From the IMG/VR virus record IMGVR_UViG_3300028833_000137: DNA of 64,000 bases; one strand, 5' to 3'. The notes beneath the pieces were generated by a model. That model saw only the letters and a program-made list of their open reading frames with translations, did no database searches and was not told the DNA's origin. Below, one piece after another: positions 1,218 to 25,913 of this stretch. The stretch's first letter is position 1, and every line of letters starts with the position of its first letter. Made by a program: the position numbers and the translations under genes. Source of the stretch: a virus (taxonomy: Duplodnaviria; Heunggongvirae; Uroviricota; Caudoviricetes).

Positions 1218-2342
1218 CTATTTTACTTTTACTCTTGTTTTATATAAATGTTCAAAAACTTCTTTGCCCTTATCAAACGGAGAATCTTTTTCCTCTAAAA
1301 CATTATCATAATCCCAAATATAAGAGAAAACAGCTTGATTAGTATATTTACGACACATAGATATTATTCGTTCTTTATACTTACGAGCCTTTTCAGTTCT
1401 CCAATCTGTATATTCTTTATCTAATGCTATGATAATTTCATTCGCACCTAAAATATCAGTTAATAAACTAATATGATATTTATTAAAAGTTGAGCCACAA
1501 CAAGCTACACAATTACTTAAATCTCCATAATAACCATCATCTAGTAATACTGATTTTTCAGCTTCTGCTATAATGGCTTGTTGCCGTCTTTTAATACCAT
1601 TTTGATGCTCATATATACCATACAAATTAAACTGTAATTGATGAGTATATAATACTTTTCCTATTTGTAGTGGACGATATTTACCATAAAGTTCTGCTTC
1701 TTCTTTATTAAAAGTTCGCCCACGAATACCTATTAATCTACCATTTATATCAAAATGAGGAATAACTACTTTATTTTGAGTTAATGAAAATCCTATATGA
1801 AATTTATCCATAGCCTCTTTTGTAATACCATCTTGTAGCCAAGAGGGATGATAATAATGGGTAAAGTATGATAATATTTCTTTTGGATATTCATCTAACA
1901 CTGGAATATTTGTTTTGAATTTATATCTTTCCGAATCTATTATTAAATCATTGGTGCGTTTTTGTGTAGAAACAATTATATGTTTTAAGCATTGTTTGAC
2001 ATAATCTTCTGCTTCTTCTAATGTCACAGGATAATGATTAATCGCCATATATTTTTGATATAATTTAAATATGGACATTGCTTCATTACATTCTGTATAA
2101 CATCTAAAAATTTTATTATTTTGATACCAATACAACTTCATAGATTCTGCTTCATTGATAGGATTATGACAAATTGTAGGACATACAAGATATTGCTTTT
2201 CTTTATTGACCATAATTTGTGTTACTCCAAGACTTTCAAGAAAATTCTTTACATCTTCTAATGTAATAGAATCTATAATATCCTTTTTGGAAGCAATAAT
2301 AAAATCTAAATCAGTGTCTTGATTTTTTAATGTTTGTATCAT
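1218..2342 (-). CDS. DNA primase (DnaG-like, CHC2 zinc finger)
   Basis: CPTICHNPINE...RCYTEC zinc-binding cluster like the primase CHC2 finger. Overlaps the upstream helicase gene by ATGA, the usual helicase-primase arrangement. Confidence 0.5.
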   Translation of the reverse strand: MIQTLKNQDTDLDFIIASKKDIIDSITLEDVKNFLESLGVTQIMVNKEKQYLVCPTICHNPINEAESMKLYWYQNNKIFRCYTECNEAMSIFKLYQKYMAINHYPVTLEEAEDYVKQCLKHIIVSTQKRTNDLIIDSERYKFKTNIPVLDEYPKEILSYFTHYYHPSWLQDGITKEAMDKFHIGFSLTQNKVVIPHFDINGRLIGIRGRTFNKEEAELYGKYRPLQIGKVLYTHQLQFNLYGIYEHQNGIKRRQQAIIAEAEKSVLLDDGYYGDLSNCVACCGSTFNKYHISLLTDILGANEIIIALDKEYTDWRTEKARKYKERIISMCRKYTNQAVFSYIWDYDNVLEEKDSPFDKGKEVFEHLYKTRVKVK

Positions 2343-3958
2343 GTTAGCACTCCAATTAAATCACGCCAATTACATATCATTTCTTCATTAGTTGTAGAAT
2401 AAGCTGTAGATTGCCAATCTATTATTTCACCATTAATTGTTGTCATAAATAAATCTAGTCTACGACCTGTACCTAAATGTATATGTGACCATATTCTTAC
2501 TCCACGATAACGTCCTCGTCGCATTTTATAAATATCTATAATATGAGTTGGTTTATAATCTTCATTTTCTAAATAGTTTGCATCTACTTTTCCTTCACGC
2601 GCTTTTTGCCTAAATTTGGGTAATAAATCATTCCAAATATCATCACTCATACGACTCATTACACAACCCATGTCGCATTTATCGGCAACCGCTTTTGAAC
2701 CACGAATACACGATTCATCTTTAAATTCTCCATCGCCTTCCATACCTTTCGCATTTACTTGTGTAGCAGAAAAAATAAAAACGCCATAATCTTTTGCGAT
2801 TTGTTTTAATTGATTCGCCATCATCATAAGAATAACATCTTCGCGCAAACCATTTTTCGCAAATTGATTCATCATGCTTGCGGTTGAATGGATGTAGTCA
2901 AAAAATACATATTTAACTTTATCTACTGTTGTATATTTTTTAATCGTAGTTTCCACATTGATAAGATTAGGGTCGCTAATTGCTTCAATTAAAAAATATC
3001 CTTGATACTTCTGCATAATGGTGCCCGCGTACTTAACCCGTTCTTCTTCGCCAATATCATATTTACCATTTAAAATATGCGCTTCATCTACACCAGATAA
3101 GTATGCCAACATAATTGTTTGAATTTCTTCTATATCCATTTCTGTCACGATGAATAATACTTTACGGGGTTGACGCGGTTCATCAAAGTTTAAATCACGA
3201 ATAAAGGTTCCTTTTTCATGCGACCATCTTTCGGGATATGCTAAACGACAAGCATCAAATACAGAAGTTCTTGATTTACCTGCATTTGTACTTGCAGATT
3301 TTAAAAATAAACATCCTTCACGCGCACCTCTACAAGCGTTTGTAAAAATTTCTCCTTCTAAATCTGGACCAGAATCTGGTCTTTCTTTTAATGACTCAAT
3401 AAGAGAAAAAATATTATTCGCAGGGTCAGTTTTTTCTTTTTTACCATTAATGAAATTATTTTTAATTTCATTAAATTTTCCTTCTACAGAATTAAGAATA
3501 TCATCTATTGAAGACTGTTCTAGTCGTTTTTTTATCTCATCTTCTTTTAATGGATCTACACTATCTTTATCTTCAATATAAAAATCGCTTATATCATAAT
3601 GCTGTTTTTGAAGATGATATAATAATGAATATTTTTTTACTCTTGTATAATATAGATCAAAATTTGATGGTTCAGCATATTCATAGGATACATTTAAAAA
3701 TTCTATGCCACCATTAGAAAAATATTCATTTGCCGCAGCAGTATCTCTATTACTATCAAATTCTTGGTCTATTGAATAAGGCGTCAATGTTTTCGCGCCC
3801 GCTTCATACATTTTTTTAATTATAAGAAAGCAGGCTTTCGCCATGGGAGTTTCAATAAAATCACTTACTTCTATATCTGGATATTCCAAAAATAATAAAG
3901 TATTATACATTAGGCTGCCAATGATTTGACGATAAGCTGGTCTATCAATCAAATTCAT
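2339..3958 (-). CDS. DnaB-like replicative DNA helicase
   Basis: P-loop variant SASTNAGKS and FSATQVNAKG, similar to DnaB motifs H1 and H4. Length 539 aa, adjacent to the primase. Confidence 0.5.
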   Translation of the reverse strand: MNLIDRPAYRQIIGSLMYNTLLFLEYPDIEVSDFIETPMAKACFLIIKKMYEAGAKTLTPYSIDQEFDSNRDTAAANEYFSNGGIEFLNVSYEYAEPSNFDLYYTRVKKYSLLYHLQKQHYDISDFYIEDKDSVDPLKEDEIKKRLEQSSIDDILNSVEGKFNEIKNNFINGKKEKTDPANNIFSLIESLKERPDSGPDLEGEIFTNACRGAREGCLFLKSASTNAGKSRTSVFDACRLAYPERWSHEKGTFIRDLNFDEPRQPRKVLFIVTEMDIEEIQTIMLAYLSGVDEAHILNGKYDIGEEERVKYAGTIMQKYQGYFLIEAISDPNLINVETTIKKYTTVDKVKYVFFDYIHSTASMMNQFAKNGLREDVILMMMANQLKQIAKDYGVFIFSATQVNAKGMEGDGEFKDESCIRGSKAVADKCDMGCVMSRMSDDIWNDLLPKFRQKAREGKVDANYLENEDYKPTHIIDIYKMRRGRYRGVRIWSHIHLGTGRRLDLFMTTINGEIIDWQSTAYSTTNEEMICNWRDLIGVLT

Positions 3959-12402: not shown

Positions 12403-13233
12403 TTAAATTATAAAATACGGATCACAATCTATTCTTTGTAATTGTGCTTGTTCATGTAGTATTTCTAATGGTTTATTAAATTCATATTTAATATTAGAAA
12501 TTAAAAAATGTTCTCTATTAACTTGAAAAGTTTTATTACAAGTATATCCGTTGCCTTTTCGTGCGATATAATACCATCTATAATATATCCCTAAATTATT
12601 ATATTTATCTTCCCATTCTATTTTGTCTCTTTTAATTACACTTTCTAATTCAATATCATGTTGACGAGTAATATTATTTTCTAAATTTAAATAAATAGGT
12701 ACTTTGTCATCTCGTTTACAACAATTATTATTAATAGGCCAAGCATGAATTAAAAAATGATTTTCATCAAATTTCCAAGTTAAATCATATTTAATTTTTT
12801 CATAAGTAGTTTGTCTTTTTAACAAAATCTTTTCAATAGTATTTAAAAAAGTTTTTGTCTGAATTGCTCTTAAAATATGACGTTCATCTTCGTCTGTAAT
12901 GGTATATCCACGCCATTCAGTTATAAGAATGCTCGTATTTGTTTTTTCTTGCTGAGATTCTTCAGCATGATTGCCGCGAGTAGAATTAAAGCCTTGTTCA
13001 TAGCTATTATATAAATTGATATAATAAGCTTCACGAGAGTCAAGATCTTCTTCTTTACATTCTTCTAAAATTGTAAAAACAAAATCATTGGGATTTTTAA
13101 GGAGAAATTGATGCCAATCTGAATCAATACAAGTTCTATGTTCTTTTTCACGGCGCTCTATATCAATAGATTGTCCAACATACCATTTGCCACTAGAAAT
13201 TTGAAAAAAACCATAAATACCACATTTAGACAT
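12403..13233 (-). CDS. GIY-YIG homing endonuclease
   Basis: N-terminal GIYGFF...GKWYVGQS...RREKEH GIY-YIG motif. Free-standing, sits beside the topoisomerase genes. Confidence 0.6.
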   Translation of the reverse strand: MSKCGIYGFFQISSGKWYVGQSIDIERREKEHRTCIDSDWHQFLLKNPNDFVFTILEECKEEDLDSREAYYINLYNSYEQGFNSTRGNHAEESQQEKTNTSILITEWRGYTITDEDERHILRAIQTKTFLNTIEKILLKRQTTYEKIKYDLTWKFDENHFLIHAWPINNNCCKRDDKVPIYLNLENNITRQHDIELESVIKRDKIEWEDKYNNLGIYYRWYYIARKGNGYTCNKTFQVNREHFLISNIKYEFNKPLEILHEQAQLQRIDCDPYFII

Positions 13234-13965: not shown

Positions 13966-14424
13966 TTATGTTAATACCGTTCTACATTGTGTTTTTTTAC
14001 TTCTTACTTCAAGCGTATCAGTAATAAATTGTAACATATTATAATAAGTATCTTTATTTTTATTACAGACAAAAAATTCATTTGCACTACAATAAGTCAT
14101 TAAAGATGCTGGTTCATCTGTAATTTGAAGAATGATAATTCTTTTATTTAAAGCATAAGCATATCCATTTTCCCAATTAGTACCCGCGGTTGATTTTCTT
14201 CCTTGAGAAATCATAAAGAAAACATCGCATTCTTGAATTGCTTTAATATCTGCTTCAAAAACAGCTTGCGCCCAATCTTCTTGTGGCATATCCCAAGCAT
14301 TTTCAATTTTAAGCTCCCAAGGACAATATACTTCATGTTTTCCGTATTCACGGAAAATTTTTGCTATTTGAACCATATCATAACGATTTTCTGTATCACA
14401 AGGGCCAGCAAGATAGATTTTCAT
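13966..14424 (-). CDS. nucleoside 2-deoxyribosyltransferase-like protein, copy 1
   Basis: MKIYLAGP N-terminus and overall pattern typical of the nucleoside 2-deoxyribosyltransferase / DNPH1 fold. Paralogue at 21209..21721. Confidence 0.45.
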   Translation of the reverse strand: MKIYLAGPCDTENRYDMVQIAKIFREYGKHEVYCPWELKIENAWDMPQEDWAQAVFEADIKAIQECDVFFMISQGRKSTAGTNWENGYAYALNKRIIILQITDEPASLMTYCSANEFFVCNKNKDTYYNMLQFITDTLEVRSKKTQCRTVLT

Positions 14425-14426
14425 TC

Positions 14427-15137
14427 TTACTCCTTTAATATTGCTTCAATTCTTTTTTTAGATTGTTCATAATATTCCGGATTGATTTCACATCCAATAA
14501 ATTGTCTGTTAGTTTGAATTGCAGCAACACCAGTAGTTCCACTTCCGCTAAAACAATCTAGTACTATATCTCCTTCATTAGAGTGCTTTATAATAAGTTC
14601 TTTAATAAGCTCTAATGGTTTTTGTGTTGGATGAAATCTTCCTTTATCGTGGCAAATAGGATATTGATATAAACCATTATCATAAGAACTATTAAAAGTA
14701 GGCTTAGATTTTTTAATACCTAATACTGCAATTTCACGAGCGTTGGATAAATAATTTATTTTACTATTAATTGGAACAGGATTTGTTTTTAGCCACTCAA
14801 TAAAACGGATTTGTTTAAATTTATTATTTTCATAATAACGTTTTATGGTTTCAATTTTCCATAAATCGTAAAAACAAATCATTGTGCCGCCATCTTTTAA
14901 AATTCTATATCCTTGTTTAAACACTTCTTCTAAATTAGTAAAATTTTTGTCCCAATCTCCAAAATCCATTGAAATACGAAATCTATCAGTATCAGTTCCA
15001 GTAAGTTCTCCATTTTGAAAATTGGTTTCGCGTGAAATTTCATAGGGCGGGTCAATTAATATTAAATCTATAGATTTTGAATCTATAGATGGTAAAAAAT
15101 CAAAACAAGATTTATTTTCATATTGCATATTTATCAC
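14427..15137 (-). CDS. DNA methyltransferase (N6-adenine or N4-cytosine, beta class)
   Basis: Motif IV DPPY precedes motif I FSGSGTTG, the beta-class order. Confidence 0.7.
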   Translation of the reverse strand: MINMQYENKSCFDFLPSIDSKSIDLILIDPPYEISRETNFQNGELTGTDTDRFRISMDFGDWDKNFTNLEEVFKQGYRILKDGGTMICFYDLWKIETIKRYYENNKFKQIRFIEWLKTNPVPINSKINYLSNAREIAVLGIKKSKPTFNSSYDNGLYQYPICHDKGRFHPTQKPLELIKELIIKHSNEGDIVLDCFSGSGTTGVAAIQTNRQFIGCEINPEYYEQSKKRIEAILKE

Positions 15138-15712
15138 ACCTTATTAAAATTAGTTGATATAATTTTATTAAATTGAATTGGATCATACCAATAACAACCT
15201 TCACAAACTTGACTATTAGCATCGCCTTTAATCCAACCAACACTATAACCTAAAACTGTTGCGTCAAAACGTTTGCATTTATTACGGCATTCTTTACAAT
15301 GTTGGCGTTTAGCATCATTTTCAGCTTTACTTAAACATTGAAAAGCATCAATAGTAGTGGCTTTTTCAGGATATCTCCCATCTTTATGGTCGCATTCATT
15401 TTGTGAATGAACATAAAGAATACTGCTGGGACGTGCTACTATTTCATTACGAATATTAGTTGGAATAGAATGGTCTCGCGTAATAGTAGTATTAAAACCA
15501 TTTAAACGAATGGCAGTAATACGCCGATGACCAGAAACACTATATTGTTTTTCAACTATAAACTTCTTAGCTAAAGTGCCATCACTACGATTCCAGTCAC
15601 CGCCATTAGTATGAGTTAAACCAATGGCCTCCCATTCTTCACGAGTAACCCAACGAGAAACACCATTATCGTCAGGATTTGCAAGTTTTACAAATTGTTC
15701 CCACTTAGCCAT
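15134..15712 (-). CDS. Cys-rich protein, possible HNH-type nuclease partner of the methyltransferase
   Basis: ATGA overlap with the methyltransferase. C-terminal ECDHKDG...N...H plus a CxxC...CxxC cluster resembles a His-Me finger. Weak. Confidence 0.25.
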   Translation of the reverse strand: MAKWEQFVKLANPDDNGVSRWVTREEWEAIGLTHTNGGDWNRSDGTLAKKFIVEKQYSVSGHRRITAIRLNGFNTTITRDHSIPTNIRNEIVARPSSILYVHSQNECDHKDGRYPEKATTIDAFQCLSKAENDAKRQHCKECRNKCKRFDATVLGYSVGWIKGDANSQVCEGCYWYDPIQFNKIISTNFNKV

Positions 15713-16139
15713 TTTATTAATTCCTTTCTTTTTTCTATAAATATTATATCAAAAGTTAAATAAGAAGTCAAATATTATTCTGACTTCCAAATTTCATTTA
15801 AAATATCATAAAGAACTTCTCCTAATAAATAACACCGTATAGCACAATCTAAATGTCTAGCTAAATCTCCATCATGATAATGCTGTAAAAGAATTTTCAT
15901 ATCTATACCAAATTCTTCACAAGCCTCCATCATTAAATCAAGATTATAAGCAAGACATGACTCACAATAGCTCTCTGTATCGTAGTATTTTCCGCCATTC
16001 CCAGTAATAGAGTCATTCGCCCATAGTTCACTATAAAGATCATCTTCTAGGTCAGTGCGAAATTCCCAATCTTCTAGTGTTATGTTAGATTCAATATAAT
16101 TTAATATATCTAATTTTATTGCTTTTCTATAATCATAGC

Positions 16140-16859
16140 TCATGCTACTATCTCCCATTTTTCATTAGGCATAATCTCTAATATATCCTGATAGAGAATA
16201 TTAAATTTTTGATTATCATATGAATGATCAACATGATAATGGCCCATATACCACTTATTGAAAGTAGTAGTCATTCTTACAAACTTTTCAAGAAAATTAG
16301 TAATATCGTCATGCGCTCGTTCATATGAAAAAAGTTTGTCTACAATATAATTTGGACCACAATGAGTGATGATATTGTCTACTTGGAAGTTATGTGCGCG
16401 AAGATTATTCGCGGCGTATTCCATTTCATCCCAGGTAGGTATTTCTTGTGGCCACCATGATACGCCTTCTTTACGATAAGCTTTATCAACAGAAGTTGCT
16501 CCACCCATACAGAAAAAGGTTTGATTATTAAGTGTAAAAATTTCACCATTTTCTATATACATAACATGCGGTCGTACTCTACGAACCTTGGTGCCGTGCC
16601 ATTCGGTGAGCGGAATTGCGCGAAGTGTATCATAATTTTCATGATTGCCTAGCACTGAAACTACAGTGTATGGTCTATCTTCAAGCCAATCGCACCAATA
16701 CTTTACTTCTTTAGAATTGTTCCAAGTGAATCCTGCATCACCACAAATAATAAGTGTATCTTCTTTATTTAATTCGCGCGAAGAAGGCCAATTTTTAAAA
16801 CTTAGTTTTTGAATATCTATTTCAAGATGAATATCGCCAGTAACGAATATTCTATTCAT
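16140..16859 (-). CDS. calcineurin-like metallophosphoesterase
   Basis: GDIH, GDAG and GNHE motifs. True start is probably MNRIFVTGDIH at 16859 with an AAAGGAAG RBS; the longer track ORF overlaps the upstream gene. Confidence 0.6.
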   Translation of the reverse strand: MNRIFVTGDIHLEIDIQKLSFKNWPSSRELNKEDTLIICGDAGFTWNNSKEVKYWCDWLEDRPYTVVSVLGNHENYDTLRAIPLTEWHGTKVRRVRPHVMYIENGEIFTLNNQTFFCMGGATSVDKAYRKEGVSWWPQEIPTWDEMEYAANNLRAHNFQVDNIITHCGPNYIVDKLFSYERAHDDITNFLEKFVRMTTTFNKWYMGHYHVDHSYDNQKFNILYQDILEIMPNEKWEIVA

Positions 16860-17371
16860 TTTAATCTTCCTTTCTTTGATTATAAATATCGGAACCATTA
16901 TAATACCGAGATTCCGAACATCCATCATTAGCAAAATTAAAAGAACAACCATAGAAATTAATAATTGGACGAATATCTGGTAGTTCAATTTCTTCTACAA
17001 TTTCAGCAAGTTCTTCAAGATTTTCTTTAACTTCTTTAATATGTTCATTAGCATTAGTACTATCTAAATCTAAGTTAGCAACAATATTAATATCGGGTTG
17101 CTTTTTTTCATTAACGTTTTGTTGTAGTTGTTCATAATATTCCATCATAAGTAATCACTCCCATGAGTATTTTTCTATTTTCTTTGGCTTTTCGCTATAC
17201 CATTTCTTGCGAGCACCGCAATGCGGGCAATATGGATAAATGTATTTTATTTTTGATTTCCAATAACCTTCTTCATCTTTTTCATATGAAGAACAGTTAT
17301 ATTGGAAGCCACATTTACAATGGGCATATAATGCGGCATCTGCGTAGTATCGCCGCACTTCCCACCAGTGG

Positions 17372-17677
17372 TCAGTTCCTCGTTTCATTTTCATTCGTTG
17401 TCGCATTAAATCCAATCATTTTAATACCATAATACTTTTCTAATAATCCTGCGAGAAAATATGGACATTCATCTACTAACGCAGGCTTATCTATTGAATA
17501 ATCATCATTGTTTAAATCCCCAAACCCATTAATTTCAAGGTCATTATAACCTAAATCTTTAGCTTTTGCGCGAAGAGCGCGTGAATTAATTGTTAAAATC
17601 ATTGCATTATTTTTACGTGCTTCTTCAAATAATTTTACAGTTTTTCCGCTGCCACGAAAGCCAATAATACTAATCAT
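17372..17677 (-). CDS. small P-loop protein
   Basis: Walker A-like GFRGSGKT. Confidence 0.3.
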   Translation of the reverse strand: MISIIGFRGSGKTVKLFEEARKNNAMILTINSRALRAKAKDLGYNDLEINGFGDLNNDDYSIDKPALVDECPYFLAGLLEKYYGIKMIGFNATTNENETRN

Positions 17678-18023
17678 TTTCTAACTCCTCCACCGTATAG
17701 ACATCAGTGTATTTTGTATGGTCTATGATTTTATAATGGTCATAGATATCATTTATTGATGTATCTTCATTTACTCTTATAATATATTGCTTACGACCGG
17801 TATCTACTTTAGGCTCGGTAATAGTAAGAATTAAGCTAACAAAAAAAATTAGCATTCCTACAGCAGAAAAACAAGTTAAGATCGCCGCGCCTATGTCATA
17901 ACCATCACTATATAGCATTCCTGCTAAAATTAAACATATAACTGTACCTATTAAACCACATAATACAAAGTTTACATAATTTCCTGGTGCTTCAATAATT
18001 GGAATAGTTTCAAGTATTGTCAT
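17670..18023 (-). CDS. small membrane protein
   Basis: Two predicted transmembrane segments. Confidence 0.3.
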   Translation of the reverse strand: MTILETIPIIEAPGNYVNFVLCGLIGTVICLILAGMLYSDGYDIGAAILTCFSAVGMLIFFVSLILTITEPKVDTGRKQYIIRVNEDTSINDIYDHYKIIDHTKYTDVYTVEELEND

Positions 18024-18381
18024 CTACATAATCTCCTTCAATTATATAAATTTCTTTTGTTTCATAAGGCTTTTCTTTTACAGTATAATTGGGGCCAAGT
18101 TCTTTCCATGCGTTATCATCAGTTATTTCAATTGTGTATTCAATTTTAGACGGATAGTTGAAAATAGTTTTGTTATCTTCAATAAAAGTTAAAGCGATAC
18201 AAATAATAAATAAAGCGAAGGAAATCCAACAGAGTGGACCAGCCCATGCTTCACATCCATCTAACCAAAGTAAACCAAAGAAAAAAGCACAAAACATCAT
18301 TATAACCCATGCCGTAACACCATACCACATTGGACTAAAAATTGTTTGTTGAGAAAGAATATATACTCCATGAATATTCAT
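18010..18381 (-). CDS. small membrane protein
   Basis: Hydrophobic segments. Confidence 0.3.
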   Translation of the reverse strand: MNIHGVYILSQQTIFSPMWYGVTAWVIMMFCAFFFGLLWLDGCEAWAGPLCWISFALFIICIALTFIEDNKTIFNYPSKIEYTIEITDDNAWKELGPNYTVKEKPYETKEIYIIEGDYVDDNT

Positions 18382-18845
18382 TTATTATTTCTCTTCCTTT
18401 CCCATGCTAGAATTTCTTTTGGAAATGTTCTTGATACATACATAATTTTGCCTTCATCATCTAATGCAATGTAATTCATCATAGGACATAACTCACAAGC
18501 ATCTAAAAATTTATTATTTTCTGGGTATTCTATTGGGTGCTTCTTTAACCATTCTTTACATTCATGTTGTTGTCTGCTTTTATCATTACTTAACATTTTA
18601 AAGGTGCAAAGATGATAATGTAATCCTCCTCCGCCTAGTTCTTCTGTGTCAATTGCTCTATAAATTAAATTAAGTTTTTCTGTTGCTTCTTCTTGATTTT
18701 TTAATACATTCATATCTAATGGAAAATTTGGATTTAACTCTTTGGCTTTATATTTTGAACGCCATCTTTCTTTTTGCATTTTCTTTCTCCTTTTTTCTTA
18801 TTATAGCACAATTTTTGAACTGAGTCAAATTATAAAAATTAATGT

Positions 18846-19043
18846 TTATTTTTCATAACAAAAATTTTCCATATCTTTGATTAATTTTAATGAAGGCGTT
18901 GTTCGTTTATTTATAACTTTATTTAAATGAGAACGAGTAATTTTTAATTCATTTGCCGCCTCTAGTTGACTCATTCCTATATTTTTTAATTTTTGTTTAA
19001 AATCAAAAAATAATTTATTTAATATATCTTCTGCTTGTGTCAT
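18846..19043 (-). CDS. XRE-family HTH transcriptional regulator
   Basis: GMSQLEAANELKITRSHLNKVINKRTTPS helix-turn-helix segment. Confidence 0.5.
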   Translation of the reverse strand: MTQAEDILNKLFFDFKQKLKNIGMSQLEAANELKITRSHLNKVINKRTTPSLKLIKDMENFCYEK

Positions 19044-19925
19044 TTAATCACACACCTCCGCTGCAAGAAATAATCCTACCATAGATAGGTATTATTTCTA
19101 TTTAATTATTTTTTTCAATTTCTTTAATTTCACATTCACTCATATATGGAAAATAAATAATATTATCTACACGACCTTCTATCCTATCTGCCATTTCATA
19201 TAATGAATTTTTTATATGACGTTCGGCTTCATCTGGCAAATATCCTTCTTCAATTAATGAATTGTAATATTCTTGTTCATCTGCGATAAAAGTAAAATGT
19301 ATTGATACTTTATATTTCATATTATCTTTCTGGAAAGTGTTTCTTCCATTCCTTTCTTGAAATTTGTAATAGTCCTCTTCTTAGCATATATTGCGCTCGC
19401 GCGTAATTTTTCTTTCTAACTCTCTTCTTTTTATGCCAGCAGGCGCGTTGGTAGGTTTTGTTAAACATAATAACTGTTTTCATGTGTGTTTCATCAAATT
19501 TCAATCTGGACACTTCCTGTTGGGATGTTTTAATTCATTAATTTTCCAATAAAGTTTTACAGCACACTTAGAACACACATCTGATTTTATTATATCAATT
19601 ATATTCTTTCCGTCTGATTGAGGTAAAGATAAATCATAAAATGGATCAAAATGTTCATGTAATTCTCTGCCACAAATATCACAATATCTAATTGTTTTAA
19701 TCATTTACTTTCATTCCTTTTCTTAATTAAAATTTTCATATTTTCATAATCTAATTGCCAAGGCCAATATAAACTAGCGTTTTTACAATCTTTTACATAA
19801 GGATGACGACAACCATCTATTTCAAAATATTTACAATGCGTATTGCCGCAAGTTTCAGCTAAATAAGAGTATTCATGCCATTGTATCATATTTTTTCCCT
19901 TCTAAAAAGAGGTCAAAGAAGGTAG

Positions 19926-21209
19926 TTATGCTACCTTCTCTTCCTTTAAAATCATATTTAGCGCAATTCCAACAATCATAGCTAATGCGGTAGTCCCGAA
20001 TGAAATGACACCAAAATTACAAACTACACCGGATACGCCAAGTGTTAGAATAGAAGCAAGAATAATTACATTCTTGTTATTATTTAAGTCAATTCCACTA
20101 TCCTTGATTGTACGAATACCAGATAGAGTAATATATCCATAAAGAATTGCCGCGCATCCGCCAAAGATACAACTTGGAATTGAAACTAGAAAAGCTTGAA
20201 GTGGTCCAAAGAAACCAGCTATTGCCATAATAATCGCGGCTAAACGAATTACATGTTTAGAACAAATCTTACTAAAACCGGTAGTTCCTACACTTTCACC
20301 ATAAGAAGTATTTGGTAGAGCACCAATAAAGCAGCCTACAGTAGAAGCAATACCATCACCGATAACTGTATTACCAAGACCCGGATACTCTGTTAAATCA
20401 GTGCCAATTACAGCACTTAAAGCCTTATGGTCGGAAATATGCTCTGAAAAAGTAACTAATGAAAGAGGTAAGAATAACAATAGAATTTGTGGTAGTAGCT
20501 TCCAATTAAATGTAGCAAAATCAATATGGAAGAAACTAAAATCTGGCATCGCGAACAAATGAACATTATTAAATGCGGAGAAGTCCACAAGAGGGATGTG
20601 ATGAATTGCGGTTGTAATGCTGGCGATTACATACACAATTAAAATAGCAAATAGGAAAGGTAAATTTTTAATAAATCCTTTGCCATAATGAGAAATCAGC
20701 GCGGTAATTGCCAAAGTAAGCATACCAAAGCCAAACCCAATTAAACTATATTGCCCCTCTACTTGAAAATAAGTTGGTAGAAAAGTAGCCAAATTTAAAC
20801 CAATTACAGCTACTACAGGGCCAATTACAACTGGCGGTAGCAGCTTATTAATCCAACCAGTTCCAAAATGGTTAATAATACCGCCAATAATACAGTAGAC
20901 AACACCCACAATAATACCACCAATTGCAACAGCAGTAAAATTAGGAGCTGTTCCTAATGCTAACGCGCCCATGACCGCGGCGACAAAAGCGCCAGAAGAA
21001 CTAATAAACATGGGGCTCTGTGAGCGCGTGAATAACTGATAAACAAGAGTGCCGATACCGGCGCCTACCATTGCTGGAGCAATAGGAACGCCGCAAATCT
21101 GCGGAATAAGAATTGTAGCTACAAAGCAGGCAATTACTTGCTGTAGAGCAGCAACAATTAGTCGCTTTGCGGGAAGACGGTCATTAATATTGTAAAGCAT
21201 ATCATTCAT
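19926..21209 (-). CDS. NCS2-family nucleobase:cation symporter (uracil/xanthine permease-like)
   Basis: LQQVIACFVATILIP matches the UraA LQHLFAMFGATVLVP segment. NTSYGESVGTTG matches UraA NTTYGENIGVMA. Twelve or more predicted transmembrane segments. Confidence 0.65.
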   Translation of the reverse strand: MNDMLYNINDRLPAKRLIVAALQQVIACFVATILIPQICGVPIAPAMVGAGIGTLVYQLFTRSQSPMFISSSGAFVAAVMGALALGTAPNFTAVAIGGIIVGVVYCIIGGIINHFGTGWINKLLPPVVIGPVVAVIGLNLATFLPTYFQVEGQYSLIGFGFGMLTLAITALISHYGKGFIKNLPFLFAILIVYVIASITTAIHHIPLVDFSAFNNVHLFAMPDFSFFHIDFATFNWKLLPQILLLFLPLSLVTFSEHISDHKALSAVIGTDLTEYPGLGNTVIGDGIASTVGCFIGALPNTSYGESVGTTGFSKICSKHVIRLAAIIMAIAGFFGPLQAFLVSIPSCIFGGCAAILYGYITLSGIRTIKDSGIDLNNNKNVIILASILTLGVSGVVCNFGVISFGTTALAMIVGIALNMILKEEKVA

Positions 21210-21721
21210 TAAAATTCATTCTCCTTTTCCTTAATAAAAGTAATAGCATCATCAATGTTAGATACAAGAATTCCACCTTGTTTGATTAAACCTGTGACAT
21301 ATAGATTTTGATAACTATATTGTTGTTCTCCAAGCGCGGCAGCACCGCCAGCATTTTTTGCTTCGCTGTGGGTAAGGTACATTTGACGATTATCTGTGCA
21401 AATGCCTACAATATATTTATGGTCGCCGCGTTCAATCTTCTCATGGAATTTACCGATTTCTGCACAAGTTCCAGCAGGAAGAATATCGCCGTCAATACAA
21501 GCAATGAGAATATCGGTATTATTTAATCTAATATTATCACCATTAGCAATTTCTTGTGAACCTGCGAATTTCTTTTTGCCTTCTGCTCCATTGATTTCTG
21601 TATTTTCAATTGGACTATATAAGTCTACATTAGGTATCGCTGCGCGAATTTTTGCGGCCCATTCTGTGTTTCGCAGAACATCACCGTGATAGAATATTGA
21701 ACCAGCTAAATAAATTTTCAT
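21209..21721 (-). CDS. nucleoside 2-deoxyribosyltransferase-like protein, copy 2
   Basis: MKIYLAGS N-terminus. Abuts the permease gene with stop and start codons overlapping. Confidence 0.45.
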   Translation of the reverse strand: MKIYLAGSIFYHGDVLRNTEWAAKIRAAIPNVDLYSPIENTEINGAEGKKKFAGSQEIANGDNIRLNNTDILIACIDGDILPAGTCAEIGKFHEKIERGDHKYIVGICTDNRQMYLTHSEAKNAGGAAALGEQQYSYQNLYVTGLIKQGGILVSNIDDAITFIKEKENEF

Positions 21722-22081
21722 ATTATTCCTCCGTTAATCTAGGGTCTCAAAATACCAATGTTTTTCTTCTTCAGTTCCATGTGCTTCTAGCCAATCCCAC
21801 TCTAATTCATTATACTTATAATAAAGGTCTGAATAGATTTTAGAAAGTTCTTCATTGCCCTCATCATACCAATACCAGCACTTGTGATTTAAAGCGGTTA
21901 CAAACGCGGCCATTGCTTGGACATCATCACAATAAGTCTCGTAGGTTTGAGTGACCCATTCTTCAAGATAATCCTCGTTTAGACCTGATAGAATCCAAAA
22001 CTTTAGTTTGAGTTCCTCAAAATAATTATTCATATTTTACTCCTTTTTTCTTTTATTATATCATAAATTTTGAAAAAAGTC

Positions 22082-22114
22082 AAAAAATAAAAGAGGGAGA
22101 TTTCTCTCCCTCTT
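22082..22114 (-). terminator. rho-independent terminator
   Basis: Minus-strand hairpin AAGAGGGAGAGAAAUCUCCCUCUU followed by UUUAUUUUUU, after the stop of 22119..22322. A TTGACT promoter lies just beyond it. Confidence 0.6.
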
Positions 22115-24214: not shown

Positions 24215-25342
24215 TTAAGAAAGAATTTTTGACAATGTACAATCTTTTGGATTGATGTCATTCTTTCTAATACTCTTTATATAAGGGTGGCGAATTGAAA
24301 TACCGGTTCCATCACTTTCTGCTTGAGCCGTTGAAACCATCATTCCACCAATAGTTAGCGGGCACATATACCATTCATCAAAATTATCACGAAGTTCAGT
24401 TTTGAAATCTTCTGTTAAACCAGCGACTTTACACAATGGAATGATATTGCCATTATCGTCGTATACACTAGTATAAATAGCGCCGGGCCATCCATAAAAG
24501 TATCCTTTAGATACTGGACGAATAGCTCTGCCATTACGATATTCGCCATACAACTCACCAGTTATTTTTTCGCCGCTGCGCTCATCTTCCCAAAGATTCC
24601 AAGAGCCAATATCTTTACCAGTATAATCCCGCACAGCAGGCTCAACACCAGTAATGAAACAATCTACATCTGCGGAAATTTCTTGCTTTACTTTACAAGT
24701 GTCCCAAGCAGAAGGACCCCGCTTTCCTGGAATATAAATAGAAGAACGCTTATAGCAAACAGCACCTTCGCCACCTTCAGAAAAAATATTATTTAAATCA
24801 TCAAAGAAATCTTCATCCATATAATGATAATCAATTCCAGTAACGAGTGGGCTGTTTATCATTTTTACTACTTCTGGAATAAATTTGACACGCTCTTCTA
24901 CAGCAGTATTCATCATATCTTTTCCGTTTAGAGCAAGTATATCAAAAATACGCCATTCAAGTTTCTTATCTTTTTGTCGGGCTTGGGCTTTAGGGTCTAA
25001 GCAGCGTAGAATAGAACCCACATCTTTATCAATGCCCCCAGGTAGATAAACTTCACCAAGTATCACTGTAGTGTCAGTGAACGCATTTACTACATCTTCC
25101 CAAAAGAAAACTTTGTTTTGAATTTCGCCATAAGTGCCAGTTTTCTTACTAATGCCGCGAGTTTGAAGAACATTGCGTTCTGGTGTAATAACAGCGCGAG
25201 ACCAGTTACCATCATACTTGCGGCTCCAGATATATTGACCGCTTGCAATCATTTGTTCAAGATGTTGGCGTTTAACAGCGGGAGACATAGAGCTCGCGGG
25301 CGCCCAATAGCGCATTGGTTCACTAGTGAAATAATCAATCAT
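24215..25342 (-). CDS. ATP-dependent DNA ligase
   Basis: Nucleotidyltransferase motif I KYDG in WSRKYDGNW. Length 375 aa. Confidence 0.5.
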   Translation of the reverse strand: MIDYFTSEPMRYWAPASSMSPAVKRQHLEQMIASGQYIWSRKYDGNWSRAVITPERNVLQTRGISKKTGTYGEIQNKVFFWEDVVNAFTDTTVILGEVYLPGGIDKDVGSILRCLDPKAQARQKDKKLEWRIFDILALNGKDMMNTAVEERVKFIPEVVKMINSPLVTGIDYHYMDEDFFDDLNNIFSEGGEGAVCYKRSSIYIPGKRGPSAWDTCKVKQEISADVDCFITGVEPAVRDYTGKDIGSWNLWEDERSGEKITGELYGEYRNGRAIRPVSKGYFYGWPGAIYTSVYDDNGNIIPLCKVAGLTEDFKTELRDNFDEWYMCPLTIGGMMVSTAQAESDGTGISIRHPYIKSIRKNDINPKDCTLSKILS

Positions 25343-25913
25343 AAAAATGCTCCTCTTTTAGAATTTCATCTACACTACCTTCTAGGTCTTCAAGTCCCTT
25401 ACAATTCTCTATAATCCAGTTAAATGCGAAATTATCAAGTTCACACTCACTGATGTGTTTTAATTGGTCAGTAGTCATGTTGGGATTTTCCCAATCTAGG
25501 CCATTTTCATCATATCTTATTACACGAATAGTAATTGTTTCATTATTTTGAATGGCAGCATAATCATAAACAATTTCATATTCGTTTATAAAACGCCAAT
25601 CAGGAATTAGAATATAATCAAAAAAACTATGCTCTGGAATAGTATAGGCGTCAATAAATTTTCCAATAATTTCAGCCCAATACTCTGGGTAGCGGCCGCG
25701 CATAACAGTTGTTCCAATTTCTTGTAATAGACTGCGGCCTGCTTCATCCTTTTCACCATTCCAATTAAAATATTGTGTCGCATAGTATTTAACTAAATCT
25801 GCAAAGTGCATAATTAATACACGCTTTCCAGCATTCTCTAGATTTCTTTTCATAATATTTGCTACGGTGTCTTTACCGGACATGCTCTTCCCACTAATCA
25901 TTATTACTTTCAT
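25335..25913 (-). CDS. deoxynucleoside monophosphate kinase (T4 gp1-like)
   Basis: MKVIMISGKSMSGKDTVANIM matches T4 gp1 MKLIFLSGVKRSGKDTTADFIM. LIPDWRFINEYE matches gp1 IVPDTRQDHEMD. Confidence 0.7.
   Translation of the reverse strand: MKVIMISGKSMSGKDTVANIMKRNLENAGKRVLIMHFADLVKYYATQYFNWNGEKDEAGRSLLQEIGTTVMRGRYPEYWAEIIGKFIDAYTIPEHSFFDYILIPDWRFINEYEIVYDYAAIQNNETITIRVIRYDENGLDWENPNMTTDQLKHISECELDNFAFNWIIENCKGLEDLEGSVDEILKEEHFYD

Follow-up and report, generated by a model that had tools for sequence, protein, structure and literature searches.

Genes at the locus

We report that a 64,000-nucleotide stretch of DNA from an uncultured virus of the Caudoviricetes (IMG/VR record IMGVR_UViG_3300028833_000137; hereafter the window, meaning this whole stretch) carries two adjoining genes, one encoding a nucleoside 2-deoxyribosyltransferase (NDT)-like enzyme, here named NDT-B, and the other a membrane permease of the NCS2/NAT family. 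The pair recurs in many related phage loci and probably acts as a functional cassette of importer and N-deoxyribosyl-transfer enzyme in the supply of deoxynucleoside triphosphates (dNTPs). A second NDT-like protein, NDT-A, is encoded elsewhere in the window. The positions of the main features are given in Table 1.

A preliminary description of the window had named an NCS2 transporter, an abutting MKIYLAG-type NDT-like gene and a deoxynucleoside monophosphate (dNMP) kinase, and the profile matches in Table 1 bear out all three. The stop codon of NDT-B (TAA) and the start codon of the permease gene (ATG) have one nucleotide in common (TAATG), and an AAGGAGA Shine-Dalgarno sequence is located 11 nt upstream of the permease start, within the end of NDT-B. 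The unit is predicted to begin with an open reading frame (ORF) of 99 aa, which matched nothing in Pfam or PHROG. Its homologues, with the motif VLNHKCWYWYD, are present in 25 of 85 viral loci that were fetched as having either the NDT-B or the permease gene, and similar small ORFs sit directly 5' of the NDT-like gene, e.g. in loci L019 and L005; the ORF may represent a third component of the cassette.

Terminator-like sites were enriched (15, compared with 5.9 ± 2.7 in shuffled sequences). The promoter-like site upstream of the 99-aa ORF is among the three best matches in 13 kb, but the promoter call is suggestive only because promoter-like sites as a class were not enriched over the shuffles (76 compared with 67 ± 9). 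We predict that the 99-aa ORF, NDT-B and the permease gene form one transcription unit, and that NDT-B and the permease are translationally coupled.

Table 1. Positions of the cassette and of related features in the window, with the evidence for each (cut-off values are those of the respective profiles)
Feature	Position	Strand	Evidence
NDT-A, 152 aa, type II NDT-like fold	13966-14424	-	PF05014, 61.9 bits (cut-off 28.8); also PF15891, DUF4406
DNA methyltransferase, N6/N4	14427-15137	-	PF01555, 4.2e-40
Terminator-like hairpin, 11 pairs	19915-19941	-	Spans the permease stop codon; predicted end of the unit
Permease, NCS2/NAT family, 427 aa	19926-21209	-	Pfam Xan_ur_permease PF00860, 209 bits (cut-off 27), E = 8.9e-62
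NDT-B, 170 aa, EfPDT-like NDT fold	21209-21721	-	PF05014, 42.0 bits (cut-off 28.8); phrog_1817 'nucleoside 2-deoxyribosyltransferase', 1.9e-20
99-aa ORF	21734-22033	-	First gene of the predicted unit
Promoter-like site	22055-22083	-	TTGACT-17-TATAAT, extended -10 TG, 11/12; predicted start of the unit
Terminator-like hairpin	22091-22114	-	Upstream of the promoter-like site
dNMP kinase, T4 gp1-type	25335-25913	-	phrog_139, 7.7e-28 over residues 1-187; Pfam DNMK, 33.2 bits (cut-off 27.1), best stretch P-loop only

The permease

The permease aligns end to end with Escherichia coli UraA (3QE7, E = 6e-56; residues 7-422 against 7-407). The preliminary description relied on the NCS2 substrate-binding residues being in place, and the substrate-binding glutamates of UraA, E241 and E290, are conserved in all 45 phage sequences together with Y288 and Y342. 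The label 'UraA/xanthine permease-like' given earlier holds at the level of the family but does not extend to a uracil permease: the score against the NCBIfam uracil-permease equivalog NF007995 is 263.9 bits, below the cut-off of 477, and the binding site is changed. Six positions depart from the bacterial uracil permeases (UraA numbering), i.e. H24 (variable, non-His), G70S, F73G, H245D, N291 (variable) and T298S. Among these, the Gly for F73 and the Asp for H245 are invariant in the phage clade, while bacterial PyrP and UraA retain Phe and His, and in a neighbour-joining tree the phage permeases form a clade of their own apart from PyrP and UraA.

According to the published criteria a canonical NAT has the motif E-x-x-G-[D/H/G] in transmembrane segment (TMS) 8, [T/S]-[F/Y]-[A/S]-[Q/E/P]-N-x-G-x4-T-[G/R/K] in TMS10 and Gln-His in TMS1. 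The TMS8 motif is present as E256-H-I-S-D260, with Glu and Asp invariant in the 45 phage sequences and mostly Ser at the Gly position. TMS10 reads S302-Y-G-E305-S-V-G-x4-S313-K, where Tyr and Glu are invariant and Thr has become Ser; its Asn is replaced across lineages (Ser, Gly, Asn or Tyr). The TMS1 His is absent, since the window permease has Gln23-Gln24, a listed minor variant, and other lineages have Leu, Met, Val, Asn, Tyr or Ile. Judged by its sequence, the permease is a member of a phage-specific, non-canonical NAT subfamily. The permease of a human faecal contig (MT837936, locus L218) is intermediate between the bacterial and the phage type (Q24, G70, F73, D245, S291 and T298), and may be a transitional form.

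A membrane transporter had been described as unusual for a phage. Unusual it is, but not unprecedented: the permease family is already present in PHROGs (phrog_20031, function label 'unknown'), and PnuC-type importers are common in phages. Matches to the permease in a tblastn search of the phage collection were at most 36% identical, and the best-scoring ones were unverified, unannotated contigs. Permease matches fetched from Listeria, Staphylococcus and Enterococcus 'phages' bear the PyrP signature of bacteria and seem to be contaminating host DNA, and were used as bacterial outgroup only. Queuosine-precursor transporters were discarded as a comparison, the paper on them dealing with other transporter families.

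The NDT-B active site and the 5' pocket

The closest solved structure to NDT-B is that of Enterococcus faecalis EfPDT (7M5H; phmmer E = 2.8e-19, full length). The catalytic residues of NDT-B do not vary among 65 sequences of the clade: Tyr4, Asp62, Glu88 (the nucleophile), Asn139 and Tyr141. NDT-B thus keeps five of the six EfPDT active-site residues, including the trans-subunit Asn139-Leu-Tyr141, and the sixth, EfPDT Asp80, is an invariant Pro82. An invariant Lys-rich loop, E-G-K-K-K-F (residues 47-52; 21568-21585), contains a 3-residue insertion relative to EfPDT, has low pLDDT and is a candidate phosphate-binding or lid element.

The predicted structure of NDT-B (pLDDT 74.1) has the NDT fold. 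Its top Foldseek matches are NDT structures and DNPH1 appears only at rank 40; in sequence comparison NDT-B and DNPH1 gave no match at E < 1. The membership of both MKIYLAG proteins in this family, on which the preliminary description depended, is supported by scores above the PF05014 cut-off (Table 1). That description had also suggested profile and structure comparison as a way of telling NDTs from DNPH1-type hydrolases. Transferases do rank ahead, but the 5' specificity is not settled by the global fold: structure prediction and Foldseek confirm the fold, and do not separate users of nucleosides from users of nucleotides.

Candidate discriminating positions are found in the pocket. In nucleoside transferases the Asp six residues before the Glu nucleophile (the -6 residue; D92 in LlNDT, D80 in EfPDT) and the trans-subunit Asn of the N-L-M motif hold the 5'-OH of the sugar. 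In nucleotide-specific relatives the 5'-phosphate ligands are S98 and S128' (DNPH1) or S97 (MilB), while an N-terminal catalytic Tyr, rather than Phe, goes with a preference for 2'-deoxyribose. According to passages of PMC12884076, DmtZ is a phage enzyme described as the first natural deoxyribose-5-phosphate (dR5P) transferase. It is without the 5'-pocket Asp and Asn, keeps the transferase Pro, has dual hydrolase and transferase activity and loads 2-aminoadenine onto dR5P. The same source reports that this Pro, in a Y-x-P motif, shields the transferase active site from water and is absent in DNPH1. In the designed phosphodeoxyribosyltransferase 4HX9 the changes relative to the wild-type parent are D92G (-6), N123S, F13R, E91Q and V93T, a set that is enough to bring about the switch.

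According to our alignments, EfPDT, BpNDT, CtNDT, LlNDT and the NDTs of phages 949, GR1 and Thrax1 have Asp at -6, and DNPH1 has Ser. NDT-B and the lineages L106, L107 and L109 have Pro there, a further lineage (alt, see below) has Ala, and NDT-A has Thr or Ser. Every permease-linked NDT lineage is hence without the 5'-OH-binding Asp and has Pro or Ala in its place. All phage NDT proteins keep the Y-x-P Pro and the N-terminal Tyr. The EfPDT-like subfamily was sampled from 1.84 billion proteins and represented at 50% identity; 74 representatives have Asp at -6 and 22 have Pro. Since the Pro-type representatives listed bear the motif of the query clade itself, Pro looks like the derived state.

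Conservation and exchange of the enzyme and importer pair

In 77 of the 85 viral loci a permease homologue lies beside NDT-B, nearly always directly downstream of the NDT-like gene. We then used a larger set of 217 loci, de-duplicated by unique NDT protein and with neighbours defined as genes within 2.5 kb. Here an NCS2 permease accompanies 135 of the 139 NDT-like genes without the -6 Asp that had enough flanking sequence, compared with none of 19 in the Asp lineages, ten of which have a PnuC or SemiSWEET-type neighbour. The scored NDT/NCS2 pairs are all on the same strand (136/136), with the permease downstream in 130, and the pairing was seen in the NDT lineages B, L106, L107-type and alt.

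Identity among the NDT-B proteins of the 85-locus set is 75% or more. Their permease neighbours, by contrast, split into 14 or more lineages with 32-48% mutual identity, which puts them about as far from one another as each is from E. coli UraA (27-37%). Within lineages dN/dS is approximately 0.05-0.10 for both NDT-B and the permease, with dS near saturation; both genes are thus under strong purifying selection, and the divergence of the permeases therefore reflects replacement or recombination and not decay. Host range and membrane compatibility are possible reasons for such frequent replacement of the importer.

The enzyme is exchanged as well. In locus L001 the flanking genes are unaltered and the permease is 95% identical, but a 218-aa NDT of the alt lineage takes the place of NDT-B. 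The alt proteins form a divergent family with the NDT fold (hhalign 94%, E = 1e-7 against the NDT-B family; PHROG 1817, 2.5e-36), and their catalytic Tyr, Asp and Glu align with those of the NDT-B family. Moreover, L188 and L196 on the one hand and L064, L077 and L078 on the other have a common backbone, i.e. NrdD, NrdG, a 100-aa ORF, dUTPase, a variable slot, a guanylate-kinase-family kinase and an integrase-like gene. The slot is occupied by alt-NDT and an NCS2 permease in the former, as in the range L188-L207, and by NDT-B and a PnuC-family transporter in the latter. The enzyme and importer pair is therefore exchanged as a unit inside a deoxynucleotide-metabolism operon. In L188 the genes overlap at all dUTPase/NDT/permease/kinase junctions, and the kinase 3' of the cassette in these sister phages is a nucleoside monophosphate (NMP) kinase.

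The PnuC-like replacements pass the cut-off of the NCBIfam PnuC (nicotinamide riboside transporter) model (53 and 51 bits, cut-off 42), and according to the literature pnuC often occurs with NAD genes in gut jumbo phages. Both would fit a salvage of NAD+ precursors in which nicotinamide or nicotinamide riboside is imported and NMN/NAD+ rebuilt by the NDT-fold enzyme and the kinase to counter an NAD-depleting defence. We regard this as very improbable. There is no NadR, Nampt, Nmnat or NadM beside the cassette in the loci examined, where the neighbours are NrdD, NrdG, NrdJ, dUTPase and the guanylate-kinase-like kinase. In addition, a catalytic Tyr in place of Phe speaks for substrates with 2'-deoxyribose, and nicotinamide is not a known cargo of NAT permeases.

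Phage contigs that had been binned into metagenome-assembled genomes (MAGs) of Clostridia and Bacilli carry other NDT lineages directly 5' of the permease, and on one of them the NDT/permease pair adjoins a class II ribonucleotide reductase (RNR). When a five-sequence permease alignment was searched against the MAG contigs only phage contigs were matched, and no true bacterial homologue context was found; likewise, the best 120 matches to the permease and to NDT-B in large protein databases came from the phage clade only. Host DNA or misassembly as the source of the genes could be ruled out, as they are located mid-operon in a co-directional phage replication module, are present in more than 130 distinct phage loci and are under purifying selection. 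A 556-aa NDT 'fusion' in L104 was rejected as a clue to a partner enzyme, being an in-frame insertion of a GIY-YIG/NUMOD homing endonuclease (1385-3055). In several loci gaps of 300-1300 bp between the NDT and permease genes are filled by small ORFs, including GIY-YIG-like sequences.

NDT-A and the methyltransferase cassette

The preliminary description had counted the NDT-like gene next to the methyltransferase as a second copy. Its position and family were correct, but NDT-A is no duplicate of NDT-B, the two being 27% identical over 92 residues (E = 0.015). The structures closest to NDT-A are BpNDT (6EVS, 9.4e-10) and CtNDT. Tyr4, Asp59 and Glu85 are invariant in 36 sequences, the -6 residue is Thr79 (Thr or Ser across the family), an invariant Ser107-Leu-Met replaces Asn-Leu-Met, and Arg14, Arg25 and Arg76 are conserved. 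NDT-A thus has all three DmtZ-type features, the catalytic triad, the transferase Pro and a 5' pocket free of Asp and Asn, whereas NDT-B has lost the Asp and kept the Asn. The small hydroxyl residues that DNPH1 has at the -6 and trans positions are matched by Thr79 and Ser107 of NDT-A and not by Pro82 and Asn139 of NDT-B. The NDT-A pocket is the most DNPH1/4HX9-like of all, and NDT-A is predicted to act on dNMPs.

Such a pocket, with its Arg14, Arg25 and Arg76, and the hydrolase activity of DmtZ are also what would be expected if the NDT-fold proteins were dNMP N-glycosidases (DNPH1/MilB-like) that sanitise or degrade the pool, the permease serving for re-uptake or efflux of the released base. 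This is improbable in our view. All the phage proteins keep the Y-x-P Pro that is missing from DNPH1, and the similarity to DNPH1 and MilB is remote (E = 0.43 for NDT-A, no match for NDT-B; Foldseek ranks 30 and 40, the NDT-A model having pLDDT 84.6). Furthermore, the characterised bacterial NATs are proton symporters working in uptake, and it is hard to see why a hydrolase would require a closely coupled importer.

NDT-A occurs in the same phage clade, but no transporter was seen near NDT-A genes in our locus survey, and the part of the earlier proposal that tied NDT-A to the imported base is not supported; import of a base by the permease and its exchange by NDT-B on deoxynucleosides or dNMPs is the account that fits the comparative evidence best.

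The methyltransferase next to NDT-A forms a restriction-modification-like cassette with an IceA-family (NlaIII-like) endonuclease (PF05315, 8.9e-35; the two span 14427-15712 on the minus strand). Between the same flanks this cassette is present in L095 and absent in the closest relative, L086, where NDT-A directly follows a 127-aa ORF. The two genes are therefore a mobile insertion and their adjacency to NDT-A is incidental; NDT-A and the methyltransferase as a functional pair was rejected for the same reason.

A different role for both NDTs would be the placing of a non-canonical base in phage DNA. The permease would import a modified or rare base and the Asp-less NDT-fold enzymes would load it onto dR5P taken from host dNMPs, giving a modified dNTP and DNA that is substituted at least in part. 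DmtZ sets a precedent for such loading by the NDT family (passages of PMC12884076), the binding site of the permease resembles that of no characterised uracil, xanthine or urate NAT, and NDT-A, with its dNMP-type pocket, could remove the canonical dNMP. If true, a DmtZ-like route would for the first time be coupled to uptake, the base being environmental and not made de novo. We nevertheless give this account a low probability. The 64-kb window, approximately one third of the genome, showed no genes for PurZ, DatZ, MazZ-like proteins, dNTP pyrophosphatase, hydroxymethylase, DpdA or glycosyl- and aminoacyl-transfer; with no supporting gene found in the window, the hypermodification alternative of the preliminary description gains no support there. 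The phage has an ordinary N6/N4 methyltransferase and endonuclease cassette, and in relatives the NDT/permease cassette lies beside RNR and dUTPase, a setting characteristic of canonical dNTP supply.

Proposed function of the cassette

We tentatively propose that the operon is a base-salvage or base-swap cassette for phage DNA synthesis acting at the level of dNMPs; we put the chances of this full statement just short of even. In this scheme the NAT-type proton symporter would bring a free nucleobase-like heterocycle into the infected cell, transport being presumably inward. Glu88 of NDT-B, assisted by Tyr4 and Asp62, would attack C1' of a 2'-deoxyribosyl donor to give a covalent deoxyribosyl-enzyme, and NDT-B would then pass the sugar on to the imported base. 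Donor and product would most likely be dNMPs, i.e. the enzyme would transfer dR5P as do DmtZ and the engineered phosphodeoxyribosyltransferases. In this way dNMPs obtained from host DNA or via RNR could be turned into the dNMP that the AT-rich phage is short of, and the phage dNMP kinase would phosphorylate the product. The benefit is likely to be a re-balancing of the dNMP pool for a genome of approximately 35% GC.

For the kinase, the earlier proposal is correct as to the gene. A part in the route as the candidate next step (dNMP to dNDP) is plausible, the gene being located 3.6 kb from the cassette behind PhoH, ClpP and ligase.

The preliminary description had left it open whether bases are exchanged on deoxynucleosides or on dNMPs, and the active-site residues favour the latter. 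Transfer of dR5P, a possibility that we rate as close to evenly balanced, is preferred because the 5'-OH-binding Asp is lost in every permease-linked lineage, because DmtZ and 4HX9 provide precedents, because the gene after the cassette in relatives encodes an NMP kinase rather than a nucleoside kinase, and because no deoxynucleoside kinase was found in the 64-kb window.

The main rival is a parsimonious one, classical salvage at the nucleoside level, where the permease imports the acceptor base (in the simplest case uracil or thymine), NDT-B is an ordinary NDT and host deoxynucleoside kinases make the dNMP; the PnuC-type importers of sister phages would then supply the deoxynucleoside donor. 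The full-length identity of NDT-B to EfPDT, a biochemically proven deoxynucleoside transferase, is 33-35%, and NDT-B has kept the Tyr, Asp, Glu, Asn and Tyr of the EfPDT active site. An NDT needs both a base and a deoxynucleoside, which explains why a base importer or a PnuN-like importer should occupy the same slot, and the best family match of the permease is to uracil permeases, with Glu at the NAT specificity position. Opposed to this are the same pocket and kinase observations as above, the -6 Asp having been conserved in every characterised nucleoside transferase that we examined, and the departure of the permease from uracil permeases at H24, G70, F73, H245, N291 and T298. We consider salvage at the nucleoside level unlikely on balance, though a serious contender.

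Several points weigh against exchange at the dNMP level. Both in sequence and in fold NDT-B is globally closest to EfPDT, a nucleoside-specific purine transferase, and NDT-A to type II nucleoside transferases. NDT-B retains Asn139, which in NDTs contacts the 5'-OH, and its model is only moderately confident (pLDDT 74). The correlation between the -6 residue and the type of importer is not absolute, as NDT-B, with Pro at -6, pairs with an importer of the PnuC, or nucleoside, type in three loci, and the naive Fisher p value of 6e-21 overstates independence, the non-Asp lineages amounting to approximately 2-3 independent ones. The clues to the base disagree. The Glu at the NAT specificity position hints at a pyrimidine cargo and the nearest characterised relatives of the permease carry uracil, whereas NDT-B has its closest characterised relative in a purine-specific enzyme, and relatives of the phage have a kinase of the guanylate-kinase family attached to the cassette. 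Base exchange on dNMPs would give no net gain of deoxyribose, which makes the benefit a conjecture, and the enzyme activities are predictions from sequence.

Other features of the window

The window is part of a large Firmicutes-type phage, with 80 of its 89 ORFs on one strand and genes for GyrA/GyrB, DnaB, primase, ligase, RNase H, PhoH, ClpP and tail-fibre-like proteins. A megablast search with 13 kb against 50,697 phage records gave no match. Near-identical proteins are encoded on metagenomic contigs of up to approximately 186 kb, which indicates a very abundant uncultured clade, and wherever the source of the contigs was named they came from ruminant or other gut samples.

The window has 27 tRNA genes, all in a bank on the minus strand (31252-53069) where they are interspersed with genes for an RNA ligase (41632-42282), a DUF2828/DUF7788 protein (43966-45498) and an HNH endonuclease (36519-37280); together with the RNA ligase the bank may be a module for tRNA supply or repair. 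A PAPS-reductase-like protein (PF01507; phrog_424, 7.6e-48) is encoded at 39107-40051 on the minus strand, and the N-terminus of the product of an ORF in L085 (5239-6228), directly upstream of the permease, resembles it. A DUF5662 protein (1.5e-35) and an SPFH/Band-7 prohibitin-like protein are encoded at 48372-48851 and 49112-50086, also on the minus strand; in Bacillus phage Thrax1 a prohibitin-family gene likewise adjoins gyrase and NDT. A GIY-YIG homing endonuclease gene (12403-13233) adjoins gyrB in the window.

Significance and comparison with known systems

Phage NDT and PnuC genes have been annotated in published genomes, and the permease family is, as stated, present in PHROGs. We found no paper on the enzyme-importer cassette, on the phage-specific NAT subfamily or on the Asp-less NDT lineages, in a search that covered subscription journals incompletely. 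Phage NDT genes, which have been routinely annotated and then ignored, emerge here as one half of a conserved and exchangeable cassette that large Firmicutes phages carry within their RNR/dUTPase module, with an importer of the NCS2, PnuC or SemiSWEET type. This would add uptake of DNA precursors from the environment to the auxiliary metabolism of phages, for a clade found in abundance in ruminant and gut metagenomes, and the permeases make up a NAT subfamily whose binding-site signature is new. Should the Asp-less enzymes act on dNMPs, natural phosphodeoxyribosyltransferases would be widespread, whereas so far they have been represented by DmtZ (2026) and by engineering only, and the phage enzymes would be a source of biocatalysts for the synthesis of nucleotide analogues.

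EfPDT is the closest characterised relative of NDT-B (Foldseek 1.1e-10, TM-score 0.71-0.77), and the two have in common the catalytic Tyr, Asp and Glu and the unusual Asn-Leu-Tyr trans-subunit motif. They differ in that EfPDT Asp80 is Pro82 and EfPDT Pro77 an invariant Asp79 in NDT-B, which also has the 3-residue insertion in the Lys-rich loop (EGKKKF) and a 5-residue insertion after the catalytic helix.

DmtZ of Z-genome phages, as in Gordonia phage Ghobes (NAR 2026, PMC12884076), is, like NDT-A and NDT-B, a phage protein of the NDT superfamily, and it moves dR5P from a dNMP to a free base; it is the mechanistic model for what we propose here, especially for NDT-A. Its authors, as passages of that report state, built a hidden Markov model by hand, no Pfam model existing, and the nearest structures were DNPH1 and MilB, while the window proteins match PF05014 and are nearest to transferases. 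In addition, dmtZ is linked to dutZ, and no transporter appears in the passages on dmtZ. In tblastn searches of the phage collection NDT-A and NDT-B matched no phage of Gordonia or Arthrobacter, and hence no Z-phage, and DNPH1 as bait found nothing in the same collection. DmtZ and the window NDTs are likely to be separate lineages.

The designed phosphodeoxyribosyltransferase 4HX9 (Kaminski & Labesse 2013) was engineered from the Lactobacillus leichmannii NDT. NDT-A has Thr at the position of D92 and the identical Ser-Leu-Met at N123, and NDT-B and alt have Pro and Ala, respectively, at D92. The enzyme is artificial, the phage proteins are 14-20% identical to it, and NDT-B keeps the Asn. DNPH1/Rcl and MilB/BcmB belong to the same superfamily with the same catalytic Tyr, Asp and Glu, and bind the 5'-phosphate through the -6 Ser and the trans Ser, comparable to the Thr/Ser and Ser of NDT-A; they are distant in sequence and fold and do not have the transferase Pro that NDT-A and NDT-B retain. 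The UraA/PyrP uracil:H+ symporters (3QE7) share with the permease the fold of 14 transmembrane segments (from the full-length alignment), both glutamates and the Glu at the specificity position, and are set apart from it by the low identity, the equivalog cut-off and the six changed positions described above.

The arrangement of the cassette has counterparts in cultured phages. Lactococcus phage 949 has the order gyrase, methyltransferase and, further on, NDT (ORF99), PnuC-like protein (ORF100), NrdD and NrdG; in Geobacillus phage GR1 the NDT is followed by a SemiSWEET-like protein and then RNR; and in Bacillus phage Thrax1 the NDT is part of an RNR/thioredoxin/dUTPase cluster. PnuC-family 'PnuN' proteins of lactobacilli were long ago proposed to be importers of deoxynucleosides. 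As in the window, an EfPDT-like NDT gene of the large Firmicutes phages 949 and GR1 is directly followed, with overlap, by the gene of a small-molecule importer, beside RNR and downstream of gyrase, but these NDTs keep the -6 Asp and their importers are of the PnuC or SemiSWEET type, not NCS2.

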